64,000 bases of DNA from Escherichia coli (GTDB lineage Bacteria; Pseudomonadota; Gammaproteobacteria; Enterobacterales; Enterobacteriaceae), in the NCBI RefSeq assembly GCF_003334815.1, contig NZ_QOWO01000016.1. One strand, 5' to 3'. How positions within the stretch are numbered: position 1 is the stretch's first letter; each line of letters starts with the position of its first letter. A program made the translations under genes and the position numbers. The notes under the pieces were generated by a model that saw only the letters and a program-made list of their open reading frames with translations, was not told the DNA's origin and searched no databases. Below, piece by piece: positions 12,556 through 12,814 of the stretch.

Positions 12556-12814
12556 ATTTTTTGCATGAGATGATTTGAACGCCCTAGCACCAACCGTTCA
12601 TGATTGCACGCCACTGTCTCTAGAACTGCTATGAGCATGAAGCCGCTGTTCAAACTAAGAATTTATATGGCACTAACAGAAAAAATGTTACATATATGTT
12701 GAGCTTTAACGCAACATAGACATGTTCTATAGTTTGTGTCTCACCACCAGTTGAAAAAAAACGAAAATAGATTAACAATGTTCAGAAGAAACCTTCATAA
12801 TAGAAGAGGTATAA

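Follow-up and report, generated by a model that had tools for sequence, protein, structure and literature searches.

The window, the whole 64,000-nucleotide stretch of Escherichia coli DNA that was analysed, contains an SfV/e14-like myovirus prophage with baseplate, tail-fibre and tail-fibre-assembly genes, which ends beside prfC. Two low-GC inserts lie between the pin invertase gene of this prophage and the prophage end. The genes and larger features of the locus are as follows.

11866-12456, + strand: pinE-type serine DNA invertase gene of the tail-fibre switch (annotated as pinE in near-identical E. coli prophages, with serine-recombinase family matches).
12454-12555, unstranded: copy 1 of a 102-bp flank (direct repeat D2, 93% identical to copy 2 at 15739-15840).
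12457 to ~12645, unstranded: noncoding element of lambdoid prophages, also present in the lambda b region (placed by alignment).
~12620-12645, unstranded: junction core of ~25 bp, CTGCTATGnGCCAGAAGC-like (from an alignment of 8 sequences).
~12640-12814, + strand: cassette-specific leader of the PD-T2-1 operon, 31.6% GC, holding candidate promoters and the ribosome-binding site.
12815-13069, + strand: PD-T2-1A, 84 aa (translation equal to gene A of ECOR03; WP_075861856.1).
13072-14007, + strand: PD-T2-1B, 311 aa, LPO_1073/Vpar_1526 family (equal to gene B of ECOR03; NCBIfam NF045477 above cut-off).
14029-14066, + strand: intrinsic terminator with a 10-bp stem, 9-nt loop and U-rich tail (fold z-score -3.58).
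14076-14206, - strand: 3' fragment of a dinI-like gene (direct repeat D1, 14076-14183 versus 15847-15954, 87% identity).
14411-14770, + strand: XRE-type helix-turn-helix (HTH) gene, 119 aa (PADLOC capH, 3.6e-10).
14779-15300, + strand: ImmA/IrrE metallopeptidase gene (PADLOC capP, 4.9e-11).
15846-16094, - strand: intact dinI-like gene at the prophage end (NCBIfam DinI, 3e-20).

Read from left to right, the layout is pin, lambda-type element, cassette 1, dinI fragment, cassette 2, flank repeat and intact dinI, past which prfC begins at ~16300. The usual place of the 102-bp flank is just 3' of a prophage dinI-like gene. This is the arrangement in E. coli 1428, where a pin remnant, the flank and dinI are contiguous, the flank abuts the dinI-like stop codon and no cassette stands between; positions 12556-14075 are therefore an insertion relative to the 1428 layout. 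At 32.7%, the GC content of these positions is below that of the DNA on the left (54.4%) and on the right (52.5%). The dinI-like fragment, which is annotated as a partial DinI-like pseudogene in CP025851, lies between cassette 1 and the XRE/ImmA module. We conclude that this module came in as a second insertion, with a further copy of the flank at its boundary.

Cassette 1 carries a described operon. Nagy, Gersabeck, Conte and Whiteley (bioRxiv 10.1101/2025.07.02.662641) gave the names PD-T2-1A and PD-T2-1B to a gene pair of E. coli ECOR03, and proteins A and B of the window are identical to the ECOR03 sequences (for B, a side-by-side reading revealed no difference). The identity extends to the upstream DNA. 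A string match showed that the printed first 399 nt of the pTN1472 insert (Table S8 of the same paper) correspond exactly to positions 12457-12855 of the window; the insert begins one base after the pin stop codon and thus includes the whole 358-bp gap between pin and the cassette genes (12457-12814). The authors describe the clone as being under its "native promoter", an endogenous regulatory region, and found that it protected MG1655, in which PD-T2-1 conferred >100-fold protection against T2 and T6; growth inhibition or toxicity was seen when PD-T2-1 was combined with the tail-fibre proteins T7 gp17 and T2 gp37, gp34 and gp12 (bioRxiv 10.1101/2025.07.02.662641). Among transposon suppressors obtained in ECOR03, 28/48 insertions were in A or B (same source), indicating that the chromosomal ECOR03 locus is expressed. 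A sequence-only reading of this DNA had singled out positions 12560-12814 as a candidate promoter/operator of a cargo cassette, and its promoter half is supported by the published clone, which holds this intergenic region and gave phage defence in MG1655. Transcription from the pLOCO2 vector upstream of the insert may contribute to expression of the clone. We conclude that 12560-12814 is an ordinary promoter region, that of the PD-T2-1 anti-phage operon, and that it was for the most part already known. The PD-T2-1 paper leaves the promoter, start site and regulator unmapped and says nothing of the composite gap or of where the cassette begins and ends, both dealt with below; in addition, the operon of the window is followed by the dinI fragment and then by the XRE/ImmA pair.

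Protein A has one predicted transmembrane domain (bioRxiv 10.1101/2025.07.02.662641). PADLOC gave no match for protein A or B, a Pfam scan of protein B gave none, and no relatives of B were detected among solved structures at E <0.2; beyond its NCBIfam name, B matched only a PHROG of unknown function. Relatives that are 82-90% identical to the 311-aa protein were found in a P4-like satellite in Atlantibacter/Citrobacter, in a Citrobacter integrative element, in a P2-like Providencia phage, where the pair lies between the portal gene and gene A, and in a further metagenomic context, and the 84-aa gene stands ahead of every one of them. In more distant pairs (32-53% identical) the two-gene layout is retained, but their leaders are unalignable and so cannot be used to judge motif conservation. 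A scan of species-representative genomes yielded no relatives, and a scan of viral contigs only one near-identical fragment.

Comparison of these contexts defines the ends of the cassette. Homology between contexts begins near 12625-12640 and stops shortly past the terminator hairpin (~14070), placing the right end near 14075, while identity outside these limits is 32-40%. Within them, the leader of ~185 bp is 73-84% identical across the P4-like, P2-like, integrative-element and metagenomic contexts, and 5 contexts share the terminator hairpin, in which two pairs show compensatory changes. The cassette is thus a self-contained, horizontally mobile unit of low GC content, arranged as leader, A, B and terminator in the manner of a 'moron'. 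Morons are extra genes of lambdoid prophages that have their own promoter and terminator and a differing base composition. The cassette resembles them in being low in GC (32.7% versus 52-54%), in separating genes that are neighbours in related prophages, and in having an intrinsic terminator downstream and conserved promoter-like hexamers upstream. It differs in that its promoter activity is a deduction from sequence, and in that it also occupies the cargo hotspots of P2-like and P4-like elements, which lie beyond the classical lambdoid description.

The gap between pin and gene A is composite. Its left part, 12457 to ~12645, is 84% identical to the DNA between ea47 and ea31 of lambda and HK629. 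Of 5426 complete E. coli genomes, 5384 match the first ~100 bp of this lambda-type element (median, 3 copies), and one copy of the element is at the end of the K-12 Qin prophage. No conserved reading frame was detected in it, the 'gp27' frame of HK629 being broken by stops or frameshifts in other copies. Copy 1 of the flank, at the left end of the gap, can form a hairpin at ~12459-12492 with a fold energy of -18.2 kcal/mol; the hairpin of copy 2 resembles the 3' hairpin of Rfam CssrB, below threshold. At its right end the element meets the cassette in the junction core, which is common to the right end of the lambda-type element and to the left-hand boundary of PD-T2-1 cassettes carried by unrelated mobile elements. 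In the alignment of 8 sequences, only lambda-type copies align upstream of the core and only cassette copies downstream of it. The lambda-type element marks a place of cargo exchange. That the core, or the whole element, is a specific junction for swapping defence cassettes among lambdoid, SfV/e14-like, P2-like and P4-like elements, and not a mere relic of one ancestral context, seems to us improbable.

This composite structure bears on the base composition of the flagged stretch, whose left third (the first ~85 bp) is the last ~85 bp of the lambda-type element. As a whole, 12560-12814 is 36.5% GC compared with 52% for the window, a value reached by only 3% of 255-bp windows. The description of the entire stretch as very AT-rich holds for 12641-12814 (31.6% GC, close to the 31.4% of the cassette genes) but not for 12560-12640, which is ~45% GC, with 50-nt windows reaching 56%, because it belongs to the lambda-type element.

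The smaller features of the cassette-owned leader are listed below.

12690-12699, unstranded: perfect 10-bp palindrome ACATATATGT (a chance feature at a site that is not conserved).
12706-12733, + strand: candidate sigma-70 promoter P1, TTAACG-16-TATAGT (weight-matrix score 9.25, second best in the gap).
12716-12730, unstranded: short inverted repeat ATAGA-N5-TCTAT, within the spacer and -10 of candidate P1 (broken in 3/4 divergent homologues).
12751-12779, + strand: candidate sigma-70 promoter P2, TTGAAA-17-AACAAT (top weight-matrix score, 9.34).
12772-12801, + strand: weaker alternative candidate P3, TTAACA-18-CATAAT (from the promoter-match scan and the weight matrix).
12805-12809, + strand: Shine-Dalgarno AGAGG, spaced 5 nt from the gene A start codon, ATG (read from the sequence).

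The TTGAAA hexamer that had been proposed as a -35 is present at 12751-12756, with AACAAT (12774-12779) 17 nt further on, and this pair, our P2, proved to be one of the two best sigma-70 candidates, its position being kept in five cassette contexts. Scores were obtained for the gap, 12457-12814, with a crude weight matrix built from consensus frequencies. P1 and P2 each match the consensus at 9/12 positions and P3 at 10/12, with spacings of 16-18 nt, although such matches are no commoner than in shuffled sequence: over 11800-16400 we counted 13 promoter-like matches where 11.7 were expected from shuffles. A further weak match in the lambda-type element (TTGAAC-18-CATGAT, 12575-12604) is also inside the published clone. 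P1 and P2 keep their spacing and their position relative to the start codon across five contexts. For P1, TATAGT and the 16-nt spacing are invariant in 6/6 aligned copies; the P2 position is held in all contexts as TTGAAA or TTGCAA and AACAAT or AAGTAT, with TTGAAA/TTGCAA-17-AACAAT in 5/6 copies. P3, from which the start would land within the Shine-Dalgarno, varies in homologues, the -10 being CATAAC in L027 (final T lost) and the -35 TTAAGT in L009. A start near 12740 from P1 would give a 5' UTR of ~75 nt and a start near 12786 from P2 one of ~29 nt; the hexamers of either may be the ones used. Conservation of the leader is highest in the block at 12800-12819 (9/10 columns invariant). Leader identity across contexts (73-84%) is about that of third codon positions (77-83%), so conservation alone is no proof of constraint on the leader. 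A sigma-54 reading was rejected, since TGGCAC at 12668-12673 is not conserved and is without a GC element 5 nt downstream.

If the leader were only a spacer, the operon could instead be transcribed by read-through from the invertase gene or from the late tail operon. The operon and pin share their orientation, the hairpin at 12459-12492 that follows the pin stop codon is without a U-tract on the + strand, and no terminator-like site was found on the + strand over 12153-15620, all of which would suit such an arrangement. However, the published clone is functional without pin and the pin promoter, and since it starts one base past the pin stop codon, read-through from the invertase is not required. 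Moreover, the cassette keeps its leader in unrelated surroundings, and in the P2-like phage context the upstream gene is divergent, so that this copy needs a promoter of its own. We therefore regard a leader devoid of promoters as quite unlikely, and return to one that carries its own.

The symmetric elements of the leader had been read as a possible operator. The palindrome ACATATATGT at 12690-12699 is indeed present, as are the arms ATAGA (12716-12720) and TCTAT (12726-12730), separated by a 5-nt spacer. However, the window contains 62 perfect 10-bp palindromes, and at least one occurred in 26% of dinucleotide-preserving shuffles of 12560-12814. Likewise, this stretch has 6 inverted repeats (arms of at least 5, spacer of at most 12) against 3.95 +/- 2.55 in shuffles, 24% of which reach 6. 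In neither respect does the symmetry seen in 12560-12814 go beyond what chance would give. Neither are they maintained in homologues. Across five independent cassette contexts, only 3/10 columns of the palindrome decamer are invariant, the lowest value of all leader blocks; the palindrome is perfect in E. coli copies only, other copies having ACATATACGT, ACATATTACG or ACATACTATGT, so that the dyad is imperfect in 4/4 non-E. coli contexts. The ATAGA/TCTAT arms are disrupted without compensation in 3/4 divergent homologues (L015, L017 and L027). In our reading, the palindrome and the 5-bp arms simply follow from the AT-richness of the sequence, and the leader has no dedicated operator; the chance level and poor conservation of the palindrome do not bear out its reading as one.

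A more specific form of the operator proposal deserves consideration, given the gene pair 400 bp downstream of the cassette, whose products are similar to capH and capP. Such CapH/CapP pairs reportedly regulate neighbouring defence operons. By analogy with CBASS, the perfect palindrome at 12690-12699 or other dyads could be the operator of the CapH-like XRE repressor, with the CapP-like ImmA/IrrE protease relieving repression. Several observations speak against this. The palindrome does not exceed chance expectation, no block of the leader is less conserved, its symmetry is imperfect in all other contexts, and the -35 hexamers of P1 and P2 are both downstream of it. No 9-mer is common to the leader and the upstream region of the XRE gene itself, and 8-mers in common are found in 85% of shuffles. 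The identical leader and operon are followed directly by dinI and prfC, with no XRE/ImmA pair, in four complete E. coli genomes, and the cassette is also without the pair in the P4-like, P2-like and other elements. Conversely, the pair occurs without PD-T2-1 beside a retron and beside an integrase near yejO, and no complete E. coli genome has the cassette and the pair together. In the window itself, the dinI pseudogene fragment, a mark of separate insertion, stands between the two modules, and the published clone functioned in MG1655 when given the intergenic region and the operon alone. The arrangement further departs from that of CapH/CapP systems in that the pair is downstream of the operon and not divergent from it, and in that no conserved dyad overlaps the candidate promoters. 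With no shared motif beyond chance and with modules that do not co-occur elsewhere, binding of the downstream XRE protein to the leader was not borne out, and repression through it is very unlikely. The XRE/ImmA pair is a CapH/CapP-like but independent module.

Control could also be exerted at the RNA level, by a cis-regulatory RNA, a small RNA or a leader peptide encoded upstream of the operon. In keeping with this, the leader is long (~185 bp) and travels with the operon, and it contains short ORFs, for example one of 23 codons from 12631. A scan of 11500-16500 against Rfam at E <=1, however, returned nothing in the leader; the consensus fold gave no sign of covariation, with a covariation term of +1.04 and double changes at only 2/46 pairs, and the 5' UTR fold was no stabler than shuffles (z = +0.74). 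The frame of the 23-codon ORF is lost in homologues through indels and substitutions, and the leaders of more distant homologues are unrelated. As a candidate peptide gene this ORF was discarded together with the minus-strand ORFs, which are likewise out of frame in homologues. We consider regulation of this type exceedingly improbable.

H-NS, named in the sequence-only reading as a possible binding protein, is a case of a different nature, as silencing by it could be a layer added to a promoter-bearing leader. H-NS prefers horizontally acquired AT-rich DNA in enterobacteria. The region 12640-14075, at 31-33% GC compared with 52% for host DNA, and with A-tracts and TA steps visible in its sequence, has a fitting composition, and binding of H-NS to the leader is plausible. 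H-NS (and StpA) might then coat the leader and cassette and partly silence them, the region acting mainly as a nucleation site for xenogeneic silencing. On the other hand, the operon is functionally expressed from the chromosome of ECOR03 and from a plasmid in MG1655, both presumed hns+, and silencing would therefore be partial at most. We regard such a layer as possible but doubtful.

A further precedent is offered by phage Mu, in which the accessory com/mom genes lie just past the tail-fibre invertase gene gin and have a leader controlled by Dam and OxyR. As in Mu, the cargo operon here directly follows a Gin/Pin-type invertase gene at the prophage end, but the cassette genes are unrelated and there is no com-like gene. 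Control by Dam and OxyR of the mom type is excluded, since positions 12399-13187 contain no GATC site.

Taken together, we think it probable that the locus is a mobile PD-T2-1 cassette with its own promoter-bearing leader, fused on its left to a lambdoid noncoding element and having no dedicated operator. What has been observed is the sequence identity with the published clone, the ends of the cassette, the pattern of conservation across contexts and the comparisons with chance. The AT-rich part of the leader, ~12640-12814, is owned by the cassette and most probably contains one or two sigma-70 promoters of modest strength, P1 and/or P2. These would drive low-level transcription of the A-B operon, presumably constitutive, for the single reason that no regulator site is detectable. 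The transcript would have an unstructured 5' UTR with a standard Shine-Dalgarno, and would end at the intrinsic terminator past gene B.

The correct name for this stretch is now the native control region of PD-T2-1, a system of recent description that phage tail-fibre proteins trigger, although the practical value of this relabelling is small. Mildly new are the composite anatomy of the gap, the discrete cassette ends with their shared ~25-bp core and the two promoter candidates; the cassette boundary and the promoter candidates could be used for mapping regulation or for moving the cassette. The tempting link between the XRE/ImmA pair and PD-T2-1 is removed, adjacency alone being misleading here, and this matters in view of the growing number of defence systems for which control of the CapH/CapP type has been reported. 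Finally, the locus illustrates how cargo accumulates at a prophage end, where each of the successive insertions seems to be delimited by a repeat of one and the same flank.

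Sequence analysis of PD-T2-1, a two-gene anti-phage operon, was termed uninformative in the source paper (Nagy et al., bioRxiv 10.1101/2025.07.02.662641). In the window, the C-terminal end of PD-T2-1A and the N-terminal start of PD-T2-1B are formed by one and the same motif, and PD-T2-1B also carries an internal repeat.

12989-13050 (C-terminus of A) and 13090-13150 (N-terminus of B): motif of ~20 residues, I-x-x-G-D-N-S-N-[IV]-V-x-x-x-G-x-x-N-x-T
13528-13556: perfect inverted repeat with 14-nt arms, ATATCTTTAATATA / TATATTAAAGATAT, and a 1-nt spacer, inside the PD-T2-1B coding sequence

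The motif is conserved in homologues of both proteins down to 32-39% identity, several invariant columns of PD-T2-1B fall within it, and a DNA repeat (13001-13014 / 13096-13109) is located at the two motif sites. It may act in strand pairing or oligomerisation and so link the membrane subunit with the large one. The inverted repeat within PD-T2-1B is far stronger than any repeat in the leader.

To the left of the operon, the cassette adjoins noncoding DNA of a lambda type, and homologous PD-T2-1 loci were compared at this junction.

12457-12645: lambda-type noncoding element, ~190 bp, with a second, shorter copy at 15739-15840
~12620-12645: core of ~25 bp, CTGCTATGnGCCAGAAGC-like, also present near 3560-3590 in loci L009, L015 and L017 and near 2560-2590 in locus L027
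3500-3530 in both L015 and L017: palindrome-like motif AGCTCAnATTTGAnCT, ~230 nt upstream of gene A

Phage lambda has DNA homologous to the element between ea47 and ea31. Of 5426 complete E. coli genomes, 5384 contain the first ~100 bp, with a median of 3 copies per genome; the usual location is the end of a prophage or the position directly 3' of a dinI-like gene. The element lacks annotation in most records listed, contains no conserved ORF and starts with a hairpin; the hairpin of the second copy resembles the 3' end of Rfam CssrB in a match below threshold. The right end of the element shares this core with the left end of PD-T2-1 cassettes, whether their context is P4-like, P2-like, an integrative element or metagenomic; in all of them the cassette therefore has the same discrete left end. 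The AGCTCAnATTTGAnCT motif, common to the Citrobacter integrative-element (L015) and P2-like (L017) contexts, is absent from the window, and in L017 it overlaps the top promoter-like match of the locus, TTGACC-17-TAAGCT.

Downstream of PD-T2-1 lie a second cargo module and repeated dinI sequences; one copy of the dinI flank is on the upstream side.

14207-15300: free-standing XRE HTH and ImmA/IrrE protease pair, CapH/CapP-like
14314-14330 and 14367-14388: inverted repeats with 6-bp arms, upstream region of the pair
15611-15723 (-): weak STnc130-like match, sub-threshold in Rfam (30 bits vs a gathering score of 55)
15620-15639: strong GC hairpin with a T-run, terminator-like, at the end of the STnc130 match
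14076-14206 and 15847-15954: duplicated 3' end of dinI
12454-12555 and 15739-15840: duplicated 102-bp downstream flank of dinI

No target operon was obvious for the XRE/ImmA pair; the two inverted repeats could be operators of the pair itself. Elsewhere in E. coli the pair is found at prophage ends beside a retron (RT and SLATT) or beside an integrase near yejO. ImmA and the dinI flank are 440 bp apart, and the ORFs listed for this interval have only 40-61 codons; the STnc130-like match falls within it and may represent a small RNA or merely a bidirectional terminator. The 3' end of dinI and the 102-bp flank downstream of it each occur twice and bracket both cargo inserts, an arrangement that suggests that cargo was gained stepwise, through recombination inside the dinI flank.
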